Below, piece after piece: positions 1 to 63,368 of a stretch of 64,000 nt of DNA (within the stretch, counting starts at the first letter, position 1; every line of letters begins with the position of its first letter). A program made the position numbers and the translations under genes. This stretch comes from Oligoflexia bacterium (GTDB taxonomy: Bacteria > Bdellovibrionota > UBA1018). The DNA lies in the NCBI GenBank assembly GCA_963758495.1, contig CAVWVI010000003.1, forward strand, positions 1,056,001 to 1,120,000, written 5' to 3'. The notes under the pieces were generated by a model. It made no database searches and was not told the origin of the DNA. It worked only from the letters and a program-made list of their open reading frames with translations.

Positions 1-3000
1 CATCTCCACGCTTGAGCTTGTCGGTTTTTTCCTTAAATACGTATCGAATAGCTTCAATTTTTTCTTTTGCAATCTTCATGATTGCTGTGACTTCTTGCTC
101 TAGCTCATCCTTAACAGGAATGAAGCCTAAGAGATCAAAAGGAATACTAGCTAAGGCTTCAAGACTAAGCTTCTCACCCTTTTTCAGCAATTCCTCAGAA
201 CCATCTTCCGATAATAATTTACCAGTAGTGAGCGTACCGTCTAAAGACTTAGCAATTTTATTAAATGCTGATTGTCGAATAGCGTCGGTCTCAATCCGCT
301 CATCACGCCGAATCTTACCAATCTGTTCCTCTAAAATTGACTTTGTTCGTTCATCCGGCTCAGTACCTTCACGAGCAAATACTTGAGCGTTAATTACAAT
401 ACCTTGGACTCCGGAAGGTACTCGAAGAGAAGTATCGCGAACATCTCCGGCTTTTTCACCAAAGATCGCACGAAGTAACTTTTCCTCAGGAGAAAGCTGG
501 GTTTCACCTTTAGGTGTAACCTTACCTACTAGAATGTCGCCTGGCTTAACCTCTGCACCAATGCGAATAATACCACTCTGATCCAAGTCTTTCAGTGCTT
601 CTTCGCCGACATTAGGAATGTCTCGGGTAATTTCTTCTTTACCCAGCTTTGTATCTCGAGCCACACATTCAAATTCTTCAATGTGAATTGAGGTAAAAGT
701 GTCTTCCTTAATTAATCGTTCAGAGATCAAGATCGAGTCTTCGAAATTATATCCACTCCAAGGCATAAATGCGATCAACACATTTTGTCCTAAAGCTAAT
801 TCTCCCGCATCTGTACCAGGACCGTCTGCCAGAACATCTCCAGCTTTCAAGTGGTCTCCCACATTCACGACTGGTCTTTGCGTGACACACGTATTTTGAT
901 TCGATCGTTGATATTTAGTTAGATTATAAATATCAACATCAGATCCCACATCATCACTTCGCAAGCCGGTTCGACGAACCACAATCTTCGTACCATCGAC
1001 CATAATCACTTCACCAGCATGGCGATTGATAATAATCTGGCCGGAGTCTCGCGCGACAACTCTTTCAATCCCTGTTCCTACCAATGGAGCATGGGTCCGA
1101 ATCAGTGGCACTGCTTGGCGCTGCATGTTAGATCCCATCAGCGCGCGATTCGCGTCATCATGCTCTAAGAATGGAATCAAAGATGCTGCAATAGATACCA
1201 ATTGATTTGGAGAGATATCCATCAACTCGATATCATCTGGATTAACAAGAGCGAAATCACCTTTACGTCGAGCAGAAATGAGTTCGTCTGATAAATTTCC
1301 ACTACGAAGAGCATCAGGAGCAACTTGCGCAATAACTTTGCTCTCTTCTTCCGTCGCCGTGAAAAACTTAATTTCATCTAACACAGCTCGACCATTTACA
1401 AGTCGGTATGGAGTTTCAATAAAGCCAAATTCATTAACGCGTGCGTAAGTAGATAAACTTGCAATTAACCCAATGTTTGGACCTTCTGGGGTTTCAATAG
1501 GGCAAATTCGACCATAGTGAGTATTATGAACGTCTCGAACTTCGAATCCTGCTCGCTCACGTGTTAATCCTCCAGGTCCCAATGCAGATAAACGACGTTT
1601 ATGGGTCACTTCCGAAAGAGGATTAGTTTGATCCATAAATTGTGAAAGCTGACTTGATCCAAAAAACTCTTTCACAACAGCAGAAACAGGTTTTTGATTA
1701 ATTAAATCATGGGGCATGAGAGTTTCAATTTCTTGAATACTCATTCGCTCCTTAATTGCTCGCTCCATGCGAACTAAACCAATTCTATATTGATTTTCGA
1801 TCAACTCTCCAACAGCTCGTACGCGACGATTGCCTAAGTGATCGATATCATCAATTGTCCCACGACCGTTGTTTAAGTCACAAAGATAATACAACGTAGA
1901 AAGGATGTCTTGCCGAGTCAAAATTGTCGTTTCAGGAGTAATAGCATTTTCTGGAAACTTATAATTTAACTTGAGCCGACCCACACGAGAAAGATCGTAG
2001 CGATCAGGATTGAAAAATAAATTTTCAAACAACTGCTTTGCTGCCTCCACTGTTGGAGGATCACCTGGACGCATTCTCTTATAAATCTCGATTAAAGCTT
2101 CTTCAGGACTAGAAACTTTATCTAAAAGCAAAGTCTCGCGAATAAACGGTCCATAGGTTAAATTGTCTGTGAAGATTACCTTCACATTCTGAATACCCTT
2201 GCCCCGTAACTCTTCAATTTTTGCTGCACTTAATTCTTGATTAGTTTCAAGAAGAACTTCACCCGTCTTTTCGTCCACTATGTCTTCAGAAGCAACTCTG
2301 CTTACAATAGCTTCAAATGGAACTTCTAAGCGTTTAATTCCAGCTTCTTGAATTCTCTTGATCACTGCCTTTGTGAATTTGCGATTTTTCTTAACAATCA
2401 CATCACCAGACTGTGGATCAACGATATCGTCTTCAGCTCGTTGTCCAGCAAGAATTTCAAGGTCTACAGTTTTGAAAAATTTACCATCTTTCTCAAAAAC
2501 CAGAATCTCACTTCTATAAAAGTAATTTAAAATTTCTTGATTAGACATCCCCATCGCACGCAAGATAATAGTTGCTGGTAACTTTCTCTTACGATCGATA
2601 CGTGCGTAAAGAATATCTTTATGGTCAAATTCAAAATCTAACCATGACCCACGATGAGGAATAACTCTAGCAGAGTATAAAATTTTTCCGCTAGAATGAC
2701 TCTTACCTTGATCATGATCAAAAATGACCCCTGGTGATCTATGGAGCTGGCTGACGATGACTCGCTCAGTGCCGTTAATAATGAAGGAACCAGCATCTGT
2801 CATGAGAGGAATTTCTCCCATGTAGACCTCTTGCTCCTTAATATCACGGATGTTACGAGTACTGGCTTCCTCGTCTATATCGTATACGACTAGACGTACG
2901 GTAATTTTAAGTGGAGCCGCGAAAGTCATCCCTCGCTGGCGGCACTCCCAGACATCGTACTTGGGTTTTTCAAGCACATAGCTTTCAAATTCCAACGAAG

Positions 3001-3208
3001 CCGTGCGATTAAAATCCTCAATAGGAAAAACCGACTTAAAAACAGCTTGTAATCCAGAGTTCTCACGCTTACCTGGCTGAACATCCGCCTGTAAGAACTT
3101 TTCATACGACTTTCGTTGTAGTTCTATTAGATTCGGAATCTCTACCGGGGAAGTGATTCTTGAAAAATCTTTACGAACTCGGTGATTTTCCGAAAAAAGT
3201 GAACCCAT
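1..3208 (-). CDS. rpoB: DNA-directed RNA polymerase subunit beta (5' part; continues beyond the left edge)
   Basis: Minus-strand translation from ATG 3208 (RBS AGGAG) gives [31 protein letters not shown]..., with [46 protein letters not shown] and [15 protein letters not shown]. It is absent from the ORF track, consistent with no stop inside the window. Confidence 0.98.
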
Positions 3209-4427: not shown

Positions 4428-5177
4428 TCAGGCTACACCAGCTGCATGCAGTGTATCCATCGGATCAATAGCAATGCCTGGGCTCATTGTTGAAGAAAGT
4501 GTAACGTTTTTTAAGTAAGTCCCCTTACTTGTAGGTGGCTTTGCCTTCATAATTACACTCGCCAAGGTTGCAAAATTCTCCTTGAGCTTCAATGCGCCAA
4601 AAGATTTCTTACCAATTGCTACATGGATAATACCGGTCTTTTCAGTGCGGTATTCTACTTTCCCTAACTTCTGCTCTTTCACTGCCTTGGCGACGTCAAA
4701 AGTAACAGTACCTAATTTCGGATTTGGCATAAGACCCCGAGGCCCTAATATCTTTCCAATCTTAGAAACTGCAACCATCATATCTGGAGTAGCAATCATC
4801 TTATCGAAATCAAACCAACCACCCGCAATTTTTTCAATTAAGTCTTCGGCACCAACAAAATCAGCACCCGCTGCAGCCGCTTCTTTTGCCTTATCCCCTT
4901 TAGCTAAAACTGCCACTCGAACAGTTTTACCAATACCGTGAGGAAGCACGATAGCTCCACGAACCATTTGGTCGGCATGCTTTGGATCCACTCCGAGATT
5001 AAACGCTACATCAACTGTCTCATCAAACTTGGCAAATGCAACTTCAGGCAAAAGCGCGAAAGCTTCGTCTACTGTATAGCGCTTTCCCATTTGAACTTTT
5101 TCCATTGCATTTAAATATTTTTTGCCGTGATTTCCAATTCGACGTTTTTTATCTGCCTGCTTTGTATTTTCAGTCAT
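4428..5177 (-). CDS. rplA: 50S ribosomal protein L1
   Basis: [41 protein letters not shown]. Confidence 0.98.
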
Positions 5178-53538: not shown

Positions 53539-54192
53539 TTGTATAAGAACTTTTTTTTAATTTTTATACTTCTTCAATTATACTCTTTCGCTCCACTCTA
53601 TGCGCTCCCCCCCAACCCACTCCCTAAACTATTACAGGAGGTGGAAGCAAAATATAAAAAATCAAACACCGTATCTGCAGATTTTGAGCAGCTCAATCAA
53701 GACGTTGCAATGTCTCATGTAAAAAAAAGTAGCGGAAAAATATTTGTTAAAAGACCCTCTAAGTTTCGCTGGGAAACACTCAAACCCGATCAAAGTCTAC
53801 TCATCAGTGATGGAAGTCGATATTGGTTCTACACCCCACCCTTTGACGAAGGGGAACGAGGACAAGTCATCGAGAAAGATTCTTCCCAAGTTCAATCCAA
53901 ATTAGCCAATGCACTCCTGTCGGGATCGTTTTCGGTGACTCGAAATATGACTATGAAGCAAAAGGGTCCCTCAACCTTTCTCCTGATTCCCAAACAGGGA
54001 AGCGCAGGTACGGTCACTCAGGCCACCCTTGAAGTGGATCCAAATCTGAAATTAATTCAAAAAGTTACTTTAGAACATAAGGGAGGCAATCGCTCGGAGA
54101 TCTCTCTTTCTAAGATCGTACTTGGGCAAAAACTGGATGACAGCCTCTTCGTTTTTCAAATTCCCCCAAATACCGATCAAATTACAGAGTGA
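53539..54192 (+). CDS. lolA: Outer-membrane lipoprotein carrier protein LolA
   Basis: Signal peptide; ADFEQ, SSGKIFVKRPSKFRWE, LISDG, C-terminal FVFQIPP. Confidence 0.85.
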   Translation: MYKNFFLIFILLQLYSFAPLYALPPNPLPKLLQEVEAKYKKSNTVSADFEQLNQDVAMSHVKKSSGKIFVKRPSKFRWETLKPDQSLLISDGSRYWFYTPPFDEGERGQVIEKDSSQVQSKLANALLSGSFSVTRNMTMKQKGPSTFLLIPKQGSAGTVTQATLEVDPNLKLIQKVTLEHKGGNRSEISLSKIVLGQKLDDSLFVFQIPPNTDQITE

Positions 54193-54194
54193 AA
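54077..54194 (+). repeat. Left copy of a 118-bp direct repeat (3' end of lolA)
   Basis: ATAAGGGAGGCAATCGCTCGG...AATTACAGAGTGAAA is identical, by eye, to 56599-56716. Confidence 0.95.
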
Positions 54195-54225: not shown

Positions 54226-54933
54226 TTAAAATGGATTGAAATCACCACTCCACGAAACGAATTCTTGCATATCTCGAAAATAACATAACTTCGGTAGGTC
54301 CAAAACGATAGGCTTACTATTTGACCGCCATACTTCATTTACGATTTTTAGGAGTTGTGTCGTAATCTGATCCCTGACTTCTTGAGTCATGTCCTTATAT
54401 AAATATCCCAAAGTGATATGAAACGGTACGGGTACATCTTTCTCGTGGGAAAATTCCTTGGCCAAAGAGTAAACTTTACTCGTCTCTTGAGCATCTAAAT
54501 GGACCGCTAGCTTAATAGTCCCTGAGACAGTTGGTTTATCGAGAGTCACATGGGGGTAAAACGCTTGAGCCTGAAGCCTTTTATTAAGATATTGAAATAA
54601 TGGTAATTGATTTGTTACAAATTCCTTCCAATTTTCTGGCTTATTCCCTTTTTCAGTAAATAAATTCATAGTTGTCATGTGATAGCTACTCACAGGTAAT
54701 AATGCATAGTATTGCTTTATTAATAAATTTTGATTGAGTTCATCATATATTTTTTGCAACATTTCTTTGTTTGAGTTTCCAACAGCAGCTACTACGGTCA
54801 CTCCAAGAAACGGATTATACTGACCTACAGGATTAACCTTAGCAGTATCAGGATAAATGCCAGAGTCCTGAGCAAAACCCAAACTCAAAAAAAATATTAT
54901 TCCAAGTTGGAGAGCCATAATCTTTCTCATCAT
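54226..54933 (-). CDS. Secreted 2H phosphoesterase (DUF1868-like)
   Basis: Two HxT motifs (LLPVSSYHMT, FHITLGY), GVTVV, C-terminal LCYFRDM; signal peptide ending GFA. Confidence 0.8.
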   Translation of the reverse strand: MMRKIMALQLGIIFFLSLGFAQDSGIYPDTAKVNPVGQYNPFLGVTVVAAVGNSNKEMLQKIYDELNQNLLIKQYYALLPVSSYHMTTMNLFTEKGNKPENWKEFVTNQLPLFQYLNKRLQAQAFYPHVTLDKPTVSGTIKLAVHLDAQETSKVYSLAKEFSHEKDVPVPFHITLGYLYKDMTQEVRDQITTQLLKIVNEVWRSNSKPIVLDLPKLCYFRDMQEFVSWSGDFNPF

Positions 54934-55012
54934 GGCTAAGATCGTATTAAGTAATGAACTAAAATGCAATATTCAAGTTCCGACATTTGACATTTCAAAA
55001 ACTACAACGAGG

Positions 55013-56449
55013 TCACAAACAATCACTCTTAAGGTAATTTAGTAATTCTTCTTTTGATTTTTCTCGTGCATTTTGGAAGTCATGATTATGAATCATACTG
55101 AAAAAGCTATCATAATAAAGGCCAAATTTACCATCCTCTTGCTCAGCTCCAGTGACAGCCAGATCTTCAGTAACGTCTATTAGATTTTGTACGGTGGTCG
55201 TCGAGAAATTATTTCGAATTACTTTATCATTCATTATCTTAGATAAATATAACGCATTCAACTTGAAGGCACTTAAAACCTCTTGAAGTGCATGGCCACC
55301 ATCAGCACACAAGCCAGCCCATATCGACAACAACAACAGACGCACTTCATCTTCACTTAAATCAACTTTTGATTTTAATACTACCCACAGGGCAAGCGTT
55401 GAGCTTCCAGAGATACCACATGCTAACGGAATGTTAAGTCGAGTCACATTTCGATTATAAATTGAGCTGTTTGGATCTACCAAGCATGTATCCCTAGCCC
55501 AGTGCTTCCAAGGAATAGCTCCAGGTAATTCTAAAATTGGAACATCAAATTTTACAATTCCATAGTGACTTCTAGGTATACCAGTATAATTATCTCTCCT
55601 GGATCCTCTTTCAACTGTTAATTTTTTATTGTAAAAATCATCTCGATATCTCTTAATCTCTTCCCCAATACCTCTAGCATCATATTCTTTGGCATTATAT
55701 AAGAGGTAGTCCAAGGCTAAAATAGTATTATGCCCGCTCCACAACTCATCTAATTTGTTATGTAAATAATGTTTTTGAGTTACAGGCAAGACACGGCTAT
55801 CATCGTTATCTTTCCCCCACGCTACAAAACTGCCATGAAGTCGTGAGTCACTTCTCATGCTTGTGAGCACCTTTTGATATATATTGTAGATAGCCCTACT
55901 TAAATCCTGATTGGTGACTATATTCTTTGCTAACAATGACTCATAAATACTATTTATACTTAAGTCATTACATTTCTGACTACCTAACCCTAAACTTGAT
56001 TGCTTTAAATGATCACTAGAGACTCGACTAGAAGAATAACTATTCGAAGCATTTCCACTATAACTATAGAAATCATTACTCAAATCATCTCCACTGTAAC
56101 TATAGAAATCATTACTCGAGCCATCCTCACCATAACCACTGGAATCATTATTTGAAGCGCCTCTCGCATGGCTTGAACTGAATGGAACTTGATGGTTTTC
56201 AATTGATATAAAGAATAGTTCTTTCTGCCTCGTACTAGAATTAATAATTTTATTAAATTCAATATACTTATACAAAATACTATTAGTTACATCCTTACGG
56301 TGAAAATCTTCTCTATTATCTGAGTTCTGAGCAGTTGTAGTATTTGATTTGTGGAACGCGTTATCGATAGTATGCTTTGCGCCATTTTCTGTACACGCTA
56401 GTGGCATGATAGAAAATGCCACTACAACTAAAGCCAACTCTCTTTTCAT
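55013..56449 (-). CDS. Lipoprotein with a C-terminal S-HxxxE (LnaB-like) motif
   Basis: Lipobox PLAC; Ser-rich linker; GISGS followed 39 residues later by GGHALQE. Confidence 0.6.
   Translation of the reverse strand: MKRELALVVVAFSIMPLACTENGAKHTIDNAFHKSNTTTAQNSDNREDFHRKDVTNSILYKYIEFNKIINSSTRQKELFFISIENHQVPFSSSHARGASNNDSSGYGEDGSSNDFYSYSGDDLSNDFYSYSGNASNSYSSSRVSSDHLKQSSLGLGSQKCNDLSINSIYESLLAKNIVTNQDLSRAIYNIYQKVLTSMRSDSRLHGSFVAWGKDNDDSRVLPVTQKHYLHNKLDELWSGHNTILALDYLLYNAKEYDARGIGEEIKRYRDDFYNKKLTVERGSRRDNYTGIPRSHYGIVKFDVPILELPGAIPWKHWARDTCLVDPNSSIYNRNVTRLNIPLACGISGSSTLALWVVLKSKVDLSEDEVRLLLLSIWAGLCADGGHALQEVLSAFKLNALYLSKIMNDKVIRNNFSTTTVQNLIDVTEDLAVTGAEQEDGKFGLYYDSFFSMIHNHDFQNAREKSKEELLNYLKSDCL
56054..56125. 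repeat. 36-bp tandem duplication inside the lipoprotein gene
   Basis: TCCACT(A/G)TAACTATAGAAATCATTACTC occurs twice with period 36; encodes SNDFYSYSG twice. Confidence 0.9.
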
Positions 56450-56598
56450 AATAAATACAATACCACTTTATTCATATTGTTAGTATAGAATATCATTTTA
56501 CATTATTATAAATGATACATCTCTCTACTCAGCGACTATGTTTATTTCTAATATTTCCCATAGCATTAATAATGCAGATAGTCATTAAATTAAGAAAT

Positions 56599-56716
56599 AT
56601 AAGGGAGGCAATCGCTCGGAGATCTCTCTTTCTAAGATCGTACTTGGGCAAAAACTGGATGACAGCCTCTTCGTTTTTCAAATTCCCCCAAATACCGATC
56701 AAATTACAGAGTGAAA
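56599..56716 (+). repeat. Right copy of the 118-bp direct repeat (orphan lolA 3' end)
   Basis: Identical to 54077-54194, offset 2522 bp. Confidence 0.95.
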
Positions 56717-59707: not shown

Positions 59708-60352
59708 ATGAAGCGAAATATAAACAAAATAATACTAAATTTAGCTTTTTTATTTGCGGCATTAGGGCTCAATCAGGCTCACGCTTATGCAAATGACAGC
59801 TATCCAGGCGAAATCCGACAGTCTATTTTATCCGAAGAACAATTTCGGAACACATATGGCGAGGGATGGATTCTCATGGATGGTCGTAATATAGAAAATT
59901 CTGACTTAGCAAGAACGTACGGATTGACAAACGTTCCAGACGCCCGAGGAGTTTTTCTGAGGGGAAAAAATCATAATAGAGATGATGGAAAGGGAGATCC
60001 CCATGGCGATCAAACCTGTGGGACTTACCAGGAAGACCAGTTAAAAAGTCATAAGCACACCGACAAAGGGCATTCACATGGCTTTGATTTAAATTTCTTC
60101 ACTAGTAATAATGTAGGAGGAGCACAACCCGCAAGAGGTGGAGGACACCATCACGAAGGTGAAAGTGTTGTTGGAAATATTAAGACAGGTCAAGCAGATA
60201 TCGAACCCACAGGAGGTTCAGAAACACGCCCTCGGTGCATTGTCGTCAATACCTTTATTAAAATTAATTTAACAAAGGACACACAATTAGCCAACCTACG
60301 TGAGCGCCTTTTTGCTTTAGAAACATCACTCAATACTTTAATGACACAATAA
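59708..60352 (+). CDS. Secreted phage tail-collar/fibre-tip-like protein
   Basis: Signal peptide (AHA/AYA); GWILMDGR, VPDARGVFLRG, QEDQLKSHKH..HSH, GGSETRP..VNTFIK; C-terminal heptads. Confidence 0.8.
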   Translation: MKRNINKIILNLAFLFAALGLNQAHAYANDSYPGEIRQSILSEEQFRNTYGEGWILMDGRNIENSDLARTYGLTNVPDARGVFLRGKNHNRDDGKGDPHGDQTCGTYQEDQLKSHKHTDKGHSHGFDLNFFTSNNVGGAQPARGGGHHHEGESVVGNIKTGQADIEPTGGSETRPRCIVVNTFIKINLTKDTQLANLRERLFALETSLNTLMTQ

Positions 60353-60410: not shown

Positions 60411-60452
60411 GAAATATTTAAGCTAAATTAAAATATTTATTTGGAACATTTT

Positions 60453-63368
60453 ATGAAATTTACAAAATTACTGATATCCACAGTCGTTGCTCAATCGCTT
60501 GTTCAAAACCCATCTGCTTATTGCATGGAAGCTTTCAGAAATGGTTTTCAAATCGGCGTTCAATCGCGAACCCAGTTGACAGCAAATCTAAGAGCAAATC
60601 CCCAGAAGCTCCGACAAGATATCTTTGTTGAAAATGCCAAATTCCAATTTAAAACTCACCAAACGCTCCATCCTTTAGCGGTTATCGAGATCGCCAATGA
60701 GGTCGCTAGAAAAAGAGCAGAGGGGATACGTGATCAAGTCGATTTTCTTCAAAACATGAATACGCTCGATGCCGCTCTCAAAGAGCGAAAGCAGATCGCG
60801 AATGGAAATGCCACTTATAATCCTTTAGAATCCACCGAATCCAAAGCTATCCGAGATTCTATTGGCGCCTTTTCCTCCGTACTTAATTCTGAACACACAG
60901 GAGGTCTCTGGAAATCAGGACTCGTAGCTGGATTACAAAACTACCTCAATCTGAGCTCTCAAGCCTATGACCGCATCATAGGCCCTAAGGATCAGCAAAA
61001 AGCGCAAATTGCAGAATATGTTGACTTTAAGGCTTTTGAAGATCGATCTAGCAAAGTCCTGAGTGAAATGAAAAACTTAGCAATAGCGGATCGAGACTAT
61101 GCAAACGCATTGCGAACCTACTTAGCAGGATACCAAATTTCTTTGGATGCACGCGCAGAAGATCTTCTAGATGCCACCAAAAATCCAGAGTTTGCCCAAG
61201 CTGCAGGAATTCAAGAAATTCGGAATCTTCTCCAAAATCAGCAATTCACTTTAAATGCGGATACAGCCATTGAACTCACAACAGCACTCAAAGCCCAATT
61301 TGAAGACATTGTCCGTGTTGAAATGCGAGACGCCATCAGTCAATTTGCTACTCGCGAAACTCCACCTGTTGGAAAAAAATTAGCCGAAGCTGATCGATTG
61401 GCTTTCGCAGCTGCAACGGAAAGTCTAGCGCGAGACGCTCACCGATTGGAAGGAATTAAGGCGGCGGCGTCCATCTTGAAAAATCTAGTTGATCCTGGAA
61501 CTGTACGGACCATTCGCACCCTTGAAGGAATTGCTAGCAGCAGTGTTCAGATTTCTTCAGCGATCAATAAATTCACAAAAAATTTAAAGGACTCAAACCT
61601 GAGCAGTGGATTTGACCGTGTTCTTTCTGGAGCCATTCTATCAGGCGATCTCCTTTCAGTAGAATTGAACTTGGCTGGAATGTTTTTTGGATCAGGCCCA
61701 GATCCAGTCATGGCTCAGCTCCAAGAAATCAACCAAGGAATTGACCAAATCAAGGAGATGATTGTCGGATTGTCAGAGATGATTGAAGGTGTTTCTAAAC
61801 AGTTGAACGAGAAGCTCGATTACATTATCAAATATCAAGAAGTCCGCTTCAATCATATCGATACCCAGCTCACCCAAGTCCTCAAGAATCAGGGAACGAT
61901 TGTTAGATCTCTGAATCAATTGATGCAAGAGGCACAAAATCAAAATCGCCAATTGCATCAACTCCGTGAGCAATTACTGATTCTAAAATCTCAGAATGAC
62001 CAACAAAGGATTGAAAACTCTAGCTCTCTTAATACTCTCCTCAAGGGTCAGCAAGAAATTGCTGACCTGATTACAGAAAAGGATTTACGTAAATGCCTGA
62101 TAGCCCGTCGTCTTTTTGCCGGTGTGCCCATCAGCAGACGAGACTTCATGGACTGTTATCATGCCATTGATATCTGGATGGCTAGCAGAGTGGGAGCAGA
62201 TAGCATAGATGGAATTCAATCAATGACAGACGATACCCTTTGGGGAACTCTTTCTGGAGCTTCTGAAGAAAGAAAGCAGGAGATCGCAATCGTCAAGGCC
62301 CTTCAGTTTTTAGGAAAAGACAGGCTCGCGATTTCCCGCCCCGCACGTTGGGGAAGAGGAGCAAGTCTTATTTCTGATCTCTTTCTCAAAAATCTTGACC
62401 TGATTCCAACGATGGATCAGAGCGCTCTGATAGACCACAATGAGCGGCAGGGGATTTTTGATCGCCTCGGCTCGCAAATCGAAGAGTTCTACCAATTCCA
62501 GCGAGTTTTAAAAGATCGCAATTACTTGGGCGAACTTTTTGGACGCTACAAAGCCTCACTAGAAGAACTCAGAACCGCAATGCAAGCTAGCCTAACAGCA
62601 GATCTCAATAAAGCTGCACAAACTGAGGCTCATGATTTGACGGTCTTAAAAGCACGCGCTTTTGAGGCTTTAATCAATCCTTACTATGAACCCAACAACG
62701 AAGATAACCCTGTTCGGTTCTGTGAAACTCATTGGGAAGCATGCATTTCTAAAATGACTCTGAATGCAGAATCTTGTCATTACCTCTTAAAATCCACCGA
62801 ATGCCAATCGATCGATAGGTACCAGCATGAGGTAATAAAAATACTGACTGACAAAGGTCACGATGGGGTTTTCGATAATATCCTGGATCATTTGTCTCTC
62901 TACAAAGAGCTTATCAACCAGACACTTAAATTCCTGTATCCCCGCTCGTTTAACTCAAAAGCATGGATGTCCCAACTCCTTGAAGGCCCTGCTCAAATAC
63001 CTAGCAGACAAGACGCCTTCTCCATACTATTTGATATACCTGCTAAATTCCGTGAAAACCGAAAAGAATATAGTTTTTTACCTCTACGGGTGTTGATCGC
63101 TAATCGAAGCGAGTTCGAATACAATTCCTCCTTCTATCCTGTACGAGCGATAGAAAAAGGCCTTGAGCAGAGTCAAATGACTGATCCAAACTATTTAGAG
63201 CTAGAACCTACGTTAGAAATGGCAATAGATAAAATCTATTATCTACAAAACATTATTAGTAATTTGAAACCTTTTACAAATGTGAGGGACTTGGATCCAG
63301 TACCTCAAAATACCCAAACTAACAGGAGTTGGATGGGAAATCTAAAATCCTGGCTAACTCGAAAATAA
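60453..63368 (+). CDS. Large alpha-helical coiled-coil hypothetical protein, probably exported
   Basis: 971-aa ORF from ATG 60453; central hydrophobic segment VLSGAILSGDLLSVELNLAGMFFGSGPDP followed by a long heptad region. Confidence 0.75.
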   Translation: MKFTKLLISTVVAQSLVQNPSAYCMEAFRNGFQIGVQSRTQLTANLRANPQKLRQDIFVENAKFQFKTHQTLHPLAVIEIANEVARKRAEGIRDQVDFLQNMNTLDAALKERKQIANGNATYNPLESTESKAIRDSIGAFSSVLNSEHTGGLWKSGLVAGLQNYLNLSSQAYDRIIGPKDQQKAQIAEYVDFKAFEDRSSKVLSEMKNLAIADRDYANALRTYLAGYQISLDARAEDLLDATKNPEFAQAAGIQEIRNLLQNQQFTLNADTAIELTTALKAQFEDIVRVEMRDAISQFATRETPPVGKKLAEADRLAFAAATESLARDAHRLEGIKAAASILKNLVDPGTVRTIRTLEGIASSSVQISSAINKFTKNLKDSNLSSGFDRVLSGAILSGDLLSVELNLAGMFFGSGPDPVMAQLQEINQGIDQIKEMIVGLSEMIEGVSKQLNEKLDYIIKYQEVRFNHIDTQLTQVLKNQGTIVRSLNQLMQEAQNQNRQLHQLREQLLILKSQNDQQRIENSSSLNTLLKGQQEIADLITEKDLRKCLIARRLFAGVPISRRDFMDCYHAIDIWMASRVGADSIDGIQSMTDDTLWGTLSGASEERKQEIAIVKALQFLGKDRLAISRPARWGRGASLISDLFLKNLDLIPTMDQSALIDHNERQGIFDRLGSQIEEFYQFQRVLKDRNYLGELFGRYKASLEELRTAMQASLTADLNKAAQTEAHDLTVLKARAFEALINPYYEPNNEDNPVRFCETHWEACISKMTLNAESCHYLLKSTECQSIDRYQHEVIKILTDKGHDGVFDNILDHLSLYKELINQTLKFLYPRSFNSKAWMSQLLEGPAQIPSRQDAFSILFDIPAKFRENRKEYSFLPLRVLIANRSEFEYNSSFYPVRAIEKGLEQSQMTDPNYLELEPTLEMAIDKIYYLQNIISNLKPFTNVRDLDPVPQNTQTNRSWMGNLKSWLTRK

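Follow-up and report, generated by a model that had tools for sequence, protein, structure and literature searches.

An islet of 2.4 kb with low guanine-plus-cytosine (GC) content in the genome of an Oligoflexia bacterium (Bdellovibrionota; GenBank assembly GCA_963758495.1) carries as its sole cargo two minus-strand genes, which encode a protein identified from its modelled fold as a member of the MCF1-SHE (S-HxxxE) family and a predicted 2H phosphoesterase of the DUF1868 type. The islet lies in a 64,000-nucleotide (nt) stretch of contig CAVWVI010000003.1 that was analysed as a whole and is referred to here as the window. The pairing of the SHE and 2H genes is conserved, a functional link between them is likely, and the reading that we place first, albeit tentatively, is that the two enzymes make and cut the same small molecule, linked to adenosine monophosphate (AMP), outside the cell. 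Both enzyme families were already known; as a conserved exported pair they appear to be undescribed.

An initial annotation of the window had described an islet with two co-oriented genes as its only cargo, about 80 nt apart, both with export signals, and had assigned the upstream gene to the S-HxxxE enzymes and the downstream gene, with two intact HxT motifs, to the DUF1868-like 2H phosphoesterases. This description holds in each respect: 121-nt repeats bracket the two minus-strand open reading frames (ORFs), 79 nt separate the SHE stop codon from a 2H ATG at 54933, a leader ending at Cys19 (SHE) and a cleavable leader (2H) are recognizable by eye, the motifs read HMT and HIT, and the family calls agree with fold matches to LnaB and SidL and with matches to PF08975 and Atu0111.

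Conservation of the pairing

The survey comprised 75 genomes that make up the whole host family and 131 genomes of the class that includes Fluviispira, 206 in total, with G000 denoting the genome that carries this islet. A SHE gene is present in 12 of the 206 genomes and the 2H subfamily in eight; all eight 2H genomes have a SHE gene and eight of the 12 SHE genomes have the 2H. The genes adjoin in six of the eight 2H genomes, in tandem in G000, G113, and Fluviispira G418, tail-to-tail in G327, and head-to-head in G232 and G316, which belong to one genus. In G541 a decayed SHE C-terminus remains ~65 nt upstream of the 2H gene (48% over 29 amino acids (aa), E 7e-4; 69% at DNA level over 134 nt), and in G046 the 2H gene is not linked to the SHE gene of its genome. 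Among 401 genomes of the phylum, SHE occurs in eight and 2H in six, all in the host's family and with all six 2H genomes among the eight, and the full set of 75 family genomes yields the same eight and six. The class of Fluviispira has SHE in four and 2H in two of its 131 genomes, both within the four. The chance that five 2H genomes would all fall within the seven SHE genomes of 57 (G000 excluded) is 5e-6, a value that is overstated because related genomes are non-independent.

Other collections extend this pattern. A pattern scan of GTDB returned five SHE loci, three with an adjacent 2H (an Oligoflexia metagenome-assembled genome (MAG), Fluviispira multicolorata, a cultured species whose SHE ortholog is WP_152211888.1, and a Bdellovibrionia MAG in which a transposase cuts the SHE gene), one without, and one distant Pirellulales toxin, also without. 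A metagenome scan gave ten loci, of which one is clearly bacterial and paired (L023), one is a fragment, and eight are virus-like by context or tree position; no 2H stands beside these eight in the available DNA, which for L024 ends inside the gene. L023 is the seventh adjacent pair, to which the G541 remnant is additional, and the proteins P0003 and P0014, each from one 22,435-nt Logan contig, probably share a contig and would then be an eighth. For the initial annotation, part of what would point to independent acquisitions was that the families are never adjacent elsewhere; the pair in fact recurs at six further loci that are unrelated to this one, and a remnant marks one more. The conserved adjacency expected of an effector and its metaeffector is present at seven loci and one remnant.

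Paired loci have diverged to ~27–43% identity and occur in three orientations at ≥6 unrelated sites in two classes. One generic histidine kinase is the only flanking gene shared between genera, and a conserved larger operon was rejected since the paired loci lack common flanks; a chance pair of ORFs was also rejected. Catalytic residues are all kept in the paired proteins and leaders are present wherever an N-terminus is available. Hydrophobic leaders occur on 8/8 paired or probably paired 2H proteins, two of them of lipoprotein type; export signals in both proteins were judged by eye. With leaders on both proteins in every pair, both would reach the same place outside the cytoplasm.

The SHE gene is often lost, because one copy is split over two frames (G541, locus L060, 1513–3128) and another is cut by a transposase beside an intact 2H gene (G113, L003, 887–1605). 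Separately, in G232 (L019) the 2H gene is followed by a gene with a Fic domain, a different AMP-transferase family, at 2535–3179.

The MCF1-SHE protein

The SHE gene (56449–55013, minus strand; 478 aa; protein P0001) is characterized by its catalytic triad, alignment, and fold match. The triad codons are S347 (55411–55409), H386 (55294–55292), and E390 (55282–55280) within a catalytic core at 160–478. All three residues are invariant in a 51-row alignment, as are G282, G297, C344, and G385. ENH (84–86) and RGxR (281–284) are further conserved motifs, the latter kept as R/K-G-x-R/K in 21/21 rows that cover it. A basic-hydrophobic leader ends at Cys19, a Cys occupies that column in 7/7 aligned rows, and four of six SHE homologs have a clear lipobox; the protein is a probable lipoprotein anchored at Cys19. 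A linker at 56027–56134, recognized from a repeat scan, the alignment, and the model, consists of three degenerate 36-nt repeats that encode Ser/Tyr/Asp-rich, disordered sequence of low model confidence, mostly absent from homologs. LnaB self-AMPylates on tyrosines, and one might speculate that the linker tyrosines are candidate self-AMPylation acceptor sites.

Pfam and NCBIfam give this protein no family name, sequence searches of the PDB with P0001 and with alignment A3 returned nothing meaningful, the ESM Atlas held no usable match to the core, and a plasmid collection held none. A word-indexed search found six homologs at 32–43% identity; when a profile was run against 1.84 billion representatives, 160 proteins matched at E ≤ 0.001, including 56 at 1e-30. 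The AlphaFold2 model has a mean predicted local distance difference test (pLDDT) score of 65, with the core mostly >70 and residues 1–62 and 89–159 <50. LnaB chains occupy all of Foldseek ranks 1–8, at E-values of just 0.04–0.4. A second structural aligner ranks LnaB first (Z 15.2; 275 residues aligned, root-mean-square deviation 4.2, ~10% identity), followed by Mcf (12.4) and SidL (8.8; 9SXC), with the next, unrelated, structure at 5.0. Because of these matches and the S-HxxxE triad, we identify the protein, on the basis of its model, as an MCF1-SHE member with the all-helical LnaB/SidL fold. The actin-docking helix of LnaB makes its contacts through residues 347–370 (PMC11142304), and the SHE alignment range ends, as does the islet protein itself, at LnaB residue 336–354, before most of this helix, so that actin dependence should not be assumed.

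Black et al. (PMC13431035) divide the MCF1-SHE family, which is related to PAP2 phosphotransferases, into six clades. The islet protein probably belongs to NM1S-3 because its layout and taxon resemble those of a listed Silvanigrellaceae protein with a transmembrane segment and an NM1S-3 domain (Table S1 row MBX9703311.1). In the same source, the NM1S-3 members LegK4 and Lpg0209 showed no protein adenylation, and AMP transfer and hydrolysis of adenosine triphosphate (ATP) to AMP were not universal across the family under the published conditions. Among the homologs, P0034 is an 1819-aa protein with a signal-like leader and its SHE domain at the C-terminus (1397–1819), the remainder having no Pfam match.

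The 2H phosphoesterase

The downstream gene (54226..54933, minus strand) is defined by PF08975, its HxT motifs, a model, and a fold match. Its open frame runs from 54969 to 54226 (247 aa from a TTG), with the ATG at 54933 as the likelier start. The catalytic His codons lie at 54681–54679 (HMT) and 54420–54418 (HIT), and both His residues are kept in 27/27 rows. The match to PF08975/DUF1868 (E 2.4e-12) reaches 47.3 bits against a cut-off of 21, and the leader is that of a typical cleavable signal peptide (LGFA/QD). The model has a pLDDT of 90.8 and its top fold match is Atu0111 (2FSQ, E 9e-9), followed by LigT, Usb1, and cyclic phosphodiesterases. These features make the protein a predicted, signal-peptide-bearing 2H phosphoesterase of the DUF1868 type. 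Its 17 homologs at 32–59% identity include two named Legionella DUF1868 proteins; a PDB sequence search with this protein (P0002) gave nothing meaningful, the ESM Atlas returned 2H families only, and the plasmid collection held one distant DUF1868. A Rhizobium DUF1868, 25% identical, is the last gene of a ROK-regulated ABC-transporter operon, which, together with the fold relatives, is consistent with a small-molecule phosphodiester as the putative substrate.

Four homologs (P0017, P0020, P0021, and P0023), including the two named Legionella proteins, form a well-supported DUF1868 clade without a signal peptide; in three of these proteins the C-terminal tail is acidic, and we take it to resemble a Dot/Icm signal. 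The genome of Legionella sp. PC997 also carries genes for two NM1S-3 proteins, and accession numbers suggest that these are not adjacent to its DUF1868 gene.

Host context and export

A pseudopilin of type II secretion occurs in 5/5 pair-bearing genomes, including G000, which also has a flagellar FlhA-type gene. VirB4-type matches were found in 0/5 pair-bearing genomes. Four pair-bearing family members have 85 (G000), 31, 16, and 13 ankyrin matches vs 11, 9, 4, 2, and 0 in five hand-picked pair-less members; pair-bearing Fluviispira has 0. Ankyrin expansion is typical of eukaryote-associated bacteria, and the ankyrin-rich pair-bearing genomes therefore suggest a eukaryotic host or prey. A search for an ATP/ADP translocase was uninformative, with no match in any genome, controls included. 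G000 also has long tandem-repeat genes near C3:655–668 kb and C3:1259–1278 kb.

A proposed shared AMP-linked molecule

LnaB moves AMP onto phosphate groups and tyrosine (PMC11142304), and SidL adenylates the 2-OH of 3-phosphoglycerate to give 2-AMP-3-phosphoglycerate, an AMP phosphodiester on a metabolite, which its authors suspect is removed by an enzyme that is still unknown (PMC13431035, discussion). Described under the name Ceg14, the same protein turns ATP into AMP, and AnkJ, encoded next to it, blocks it (PMC12092593; bioRxiv 2026.09.15.751733). Since SidL makes 2-AMP-3-phosphoglycerate, a metabolite may be as plausible as a protein as the AMP acceptor of the SHE enzyme, and with the Rhizobium DUF1868 in its transporter operon there are small-molecule precedents for both families. 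A molecule shared by the two enzymes seems likely because an exported pair stands side by side at unrelated sites in distant relatives, and we prefer a scheme in which it is made and then cut, although with tentative confidence, because the two proteins share export and because the 2H depends on the SHE gene and not the reverse.

In this scheme the islet would be a mobile cassette of two exported enzymes, which presumably leave the cell through the Sec and type II secretion pathways. The host or prey, presumably a protist-like eukaryote, would supply both ATP and acceptor: the SHE enzyme would move AMP from ATP onto a hydroxyl group of one of its small metabolites or nucleotides, and the 2H, acting next in that compartment, would cleave the resulting phosphodiester. 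As catalysis by 2H enzymes usually relies on a neighbouring hydroxyl and displaces the nucleoside 5'-OH, the cut would more likely yield adenosine and a phosphorylated acceptor than the starting compound, so that we infer conversion of the AMP adduct rather than clean erasure. The 2H would act as a timer or harvester of the adduct and not as the producer's antidote. The main gap in this model, which has no injection system, is where the exported enzyme meets ATP, and lysed or engulfing host cells are assumed. In a more specific 'lock and key' form, the exported SHE enzyme would make a private AMP-phosphodiester of a host metabolite for which the DUF1868 2H is the dedicated opener in eukaryote-associated Bdellovibrionota; this version we consider doubtful.

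Several observations weigh against a make-and-cut partnership. The SHE gene occurs without the 2H in 4/12 SHE genomes (G150, G283, G524, and G537; G150 and G283 are drafts that are 94–95% complete), and G537 has two SHE copies and no such 2H on a contig of >2.6 Mb. Overall, 10/16 SHE copies do not adjoin an intact 2H. A giant-virus-like SHE clade of 12 loci, among them five near-identical ones from a viral scan, has no 2H within 3–5 kb where flanks exist. Solo 2H genes occur in G046, on one giant-virus contig with no SHE in its 10.6 kb, and apparently in Legionella. In the SHE tree, paired genes are interspersed with solo copies and do not form one clade, and co-phylogeny was not seen (Mantel r 0.06, p 0.43, for six pairs with saturated distances after truncated G113 and near-identical G316 were dropped). 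Shared lifestyle, with ankyrin content as the confounder, can explain co-occurrence at genome level, though not adjacency. AMP transfer by the SHE protein is itself not certain, because its probable clade relatives LegK4 and Lpg0209 showed no protein adenylation. Models for VirB4-type and type VI secretion sheath proteins found no injection system in G000, and the periplasm and the medium are without ATP.

The SHE tree has 22 rows and leaves out G524, near-duplicate viral loci, L031, L032, and the distant L005; it supports the giant-virus-like clade well and leaves deep nodes among bacterial copies unresolved, as are those of the 2H tree, a quick tree. Catalytic residues are all intact in the giant-virus-like clade (L024–L030, L033–L037), in which some proteins have an N-terminal membrane anchor and others a weak WW-domain match (E 9e-4). 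A complex prediction for the SHE core (160–478) with the mature 2H scored 0.06 vs a mark of 0.32 and says nothing for or against binding. The second SHE copy of G327 (L046, C151: 1–1359, plus strand) lies tail-to-tail, 6 nt from a gene for a lipoprotein calcineurin-like phosphoesterase (1366–2814, minus strand). This neighbour is exported, unrelated to the 2H, and matches PF00149 (E 2e-15); the arrangement was seen once, and the neighbour may stand in for the 2H or be there by chance.

Alternative explanations

Our confidence is highest in an AMP-linked molecule that is made and cut, followed in order by parallel action, by a series in which the 2H acts first, and, level with each other, by a protein-level system and by hitch-hiking. 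The first alternative, which we regard as possible, is that the proteins are parallel co-effectors with a common eukaryotic host or prey but separate target molecules: the SHE enzyme would drain ATP to AMP and the 2H would destroy cyclic or 2'-5' nucleotide alarm signals, a useful combination that would move as one cassette. Each family also occurs solo, including in giant-virus-like contigs, the hosts are ankyrin-rich, and co-phylogeny is lacking, while Ceg14 converts ATP to AMP (PMC12092593) and 2H enzymes of viruses break down immune messengers (bioRxiv 2025.08.21.671373). Parallel action does not account, however, for a 2H that in these lineages is always accompanied by a SHE gene (8/8) while SHE without 2H is common, and the nearest solved 2H relative is Atu0111 rather than Acb1.

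It is unlikely, but conceivable, that the order of the series is reversed, with the 2H generating a phosphomonoester from a cyclic phosphate or a phosphodiester, and the SHE enzyme then capping it with AMP or, like its PAP2 relatives, removing or transferring its phosphate; the pair would then be a split cyclic-phosphodiesterase/nucleotidase for scavenging. LnaB offers a parallel in that it adenylates the phosphate of PR-ubiquitin left after Dup phosphodiesterases reverse SidE ubiquitination (PMC11142304), and MCF1-SHE proteins are related to PAP2 phosphatases and phosphotransferases (PMC13431035). A phosphatase mode would have no need for ATP, which suits a surface lipoprotein, and a distant DUF1868 lies in a transport operon. 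Retention of RGxR in all covering rows argues against this order, as the motif plausibly corresponds to the ATP-phosphate-binding arginines of Ceg14 (we infer this mapping); a scattered, mobile distribution and homologs in giant viruses point to conflict more than to housekeeping, and no transporter is common to the paired loci.

A protein-level writer and eraser, metaeffector, or immunity system, in which a protein is the target of AMPylation by the SHE enzyme and the 2H either takes the AMP off again or blocks that enzyme, is improbable. Self-AMPylation is described for LnaB and other members, and toxicity to yeast for two (PMC11142304), and SidL/Ceg14 has an adjacent metaeffector gene (PMC12092593), just as the SHE and 2H genes adjoin. 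Yet the metaeffector known for the family is AnkJ/LegA11, not a 2H, and the available part of Zhang et al. 2012 (PMC3482391) gives no immunity protein for Tox-MCF1-SHE. The toxin/immunity version offered by the initial annotation is unlikely, because the 2H of each pair carries a signal for export, which leaves the producer's cytoplasm unguarded, and because a third of the SHE genomes (4/12, including G537 with its two copies) lack the 2H. SHE without 2H is commoner than the reverse, which is the opposite of the usual immunity pattern, and cytoplasmic immunity was accordingly rejected. That the pair has no functional link, being two host-interaction genes captured together once and hitch-hiking as a cassette since, is equally improbable: both genes sit in low-GC, insertion-prone sites, the partners are often separate (G046, G541, and solo copies), and one ancestral joining would suffice, but adjacency has outlasted divergence, reorientation, and relocation to unrelated sites in two classes while all other neighbours were replaced.

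Comparison with known systems

SidL/Ceg14 (Lpg0437) of Legionella pneumophila with AnkJ/LegA11 resembles the islet pair in its MCF1-SHE fold, S-HxxxE triad, and adjacent partner gene. It differs in that SidL is a Dot/Icm-injected, actin-activated protein of 666 aa whose partner inhibits it by direct binding, whereas the islet proteins both carry leaders of Sec type, the SHE protein has an S-to-H spacing of 39 vs 44 in SidL, and its partner gene encodes an intact phosphoesterase. LnaB (Lpg2527; Dup-LnaB-MavL pathway) is the best structural match and acts in series with hydrolases; in contrast, the alignment with the islet SHE stops before most of the actin-docking helix, the islet protein has no TPR-like repeats, and none of the partners of LnaB is a 2H enzyme or is reported to lie next to it. 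The NM1S-3 clade (LegK4, Lpg0209; Black et al. 2026, Table S1) contains a 517-aa Silvanigrellaceae protein with a transmembrane segment and NM1S-3 at 159–468, the same layout and taxon as the homologs here, compared by description only. A term search of the available text of Black et al., its Fig. S1F labels, and nine supplements (PMC13431035) found no phosphodiesterase or phosphoesterase association.

DUF1868/PF08975 proteins of the Atu0111 type share with the islet 2H the Pfam match, the two HxT motifs, and the top fold match. The islet subfamily is only ~21–25% identical to rhizobial DUF1868, has Sec leaders, and lies beside SHE genes, not in an ABC-transporter operon. Viral 2H enzymes (Acb1 and relatives) share the 2H fold and a role in host–parasite conflict, but their fold scores are weak (E ~0.005–0.02), they have no export signals, and the available part of the source describes no partner nucleotidyltransferase (bioRxiv 2025.08.21.671373).

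The initial annotation knew of no description of this pairing, and none was found in the literature searched: among the matches listed for S-HxxxE, MCF1-SHE, and 2H phosphoesterase, no title or abstract reports a SHE–2H pair. The term DUF1868 occurs in no paper of the literature searched, which excluded subscription papers, preprint supplements, and figure images. '2H phosphoesterase' is absent from the first 300,000 characters of Zhang et al. 2012 (PMC3482391), as are LigT and phosphoesterase from the available part of a Legionella effector atlas (PMC11696984). Adenylation of both proteins and metabolites by MCF1-SHE enzymes has been shown only recently, and what reverses these marks was left as an open question by the discoverers of LnaB (PMC11142304, discussion). 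The conserved gene pair links two unknowns, this reversal and the substrate of DUF1868, whose structure is solved and whose substrate is absent from the literature searched, and two small soluble proteins of environmental bacteria make both testable. It also takes the family beyond injected pathogen effectors, to predicted lipoproteins that uncultured Bdellovibrionota would export through Sec and that have a sister clade in giant-virus-like contigs. If the 'lock and key' version were true, DUF1868 would gain its first substrate and the missing enzyme class for turnover of adenylated metabolites (e.g., 2-AMP-3-phosphoglycerate) would be identified.

Islet anatomy and insertion site

The islet lies between lolA, intact at 53539–54192, and a yajQ-like DUF520 gene. 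The left copy of the 121-nt direct repeat (54074..54194, plus strand) contains the lolA 3' end and stop codon; the right copy (56596..56716, plus strand), an orphan lolA 3' end, is 99% identical with one mismatch. Interior GC is 0.352 vs 0.42–0.44 for the contigs of the genome, and GC at third codon positions is 0.29–0.33 vs ~0.39 for flanking genes, whose GC is ~0.42. No paralog of either gene was found in the 3.66-Mb genome (tblastn), and 0/30 relatives matched the islet genes at DNA level. The gap between lolA and yajQ is empty (G008) or holds unrelated cargo in 7/8 relatives; in G018 the arrangement differs. On the strength of the repeats, the low GC, the lack of paralogs, and relatives without the islet genes, the islet is a recent insertion at a variable site. 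No tRNA lies near it and its interior holds no integrase.

A 146-nt AT-rich leader upstream of the SHE gene (56450..56595) is presumed to be the promoter region; it contains no sigma-70 consensus site, and a promoter and terminator scan gave nine sites vs 10.7 expected and no terminator. A soil RNA sequencing run that held 5% of the query words gave a single 246-nt contig with two differences per 243 nt to 56091–56333, in the 5' part of the SHE gene, too little for a claim about expression or habitat. In the relative G018 (L071, C12), three direct repeats of ~350 nt at 1112–1499, 2022–2372, and 4714–5101 are 86–93% identical, include the yajQ 5' end, and bracket cargo genes, which makes this a duplication-flanked islet at the other edge of the same hotspot. 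Farther along the window, a plus-strand gene at 59708–60352 encodes a protein that has a signal peptide and weakly matches a phage tail-collar family (E 0.047), and is followed at 60441–63368 (plus strand) by a gene for a 975-aa protein that matches no Pfam or NCBIfam family above cut-off; together they possibly form a second exported toxin-like module, 3 kb from the islet.

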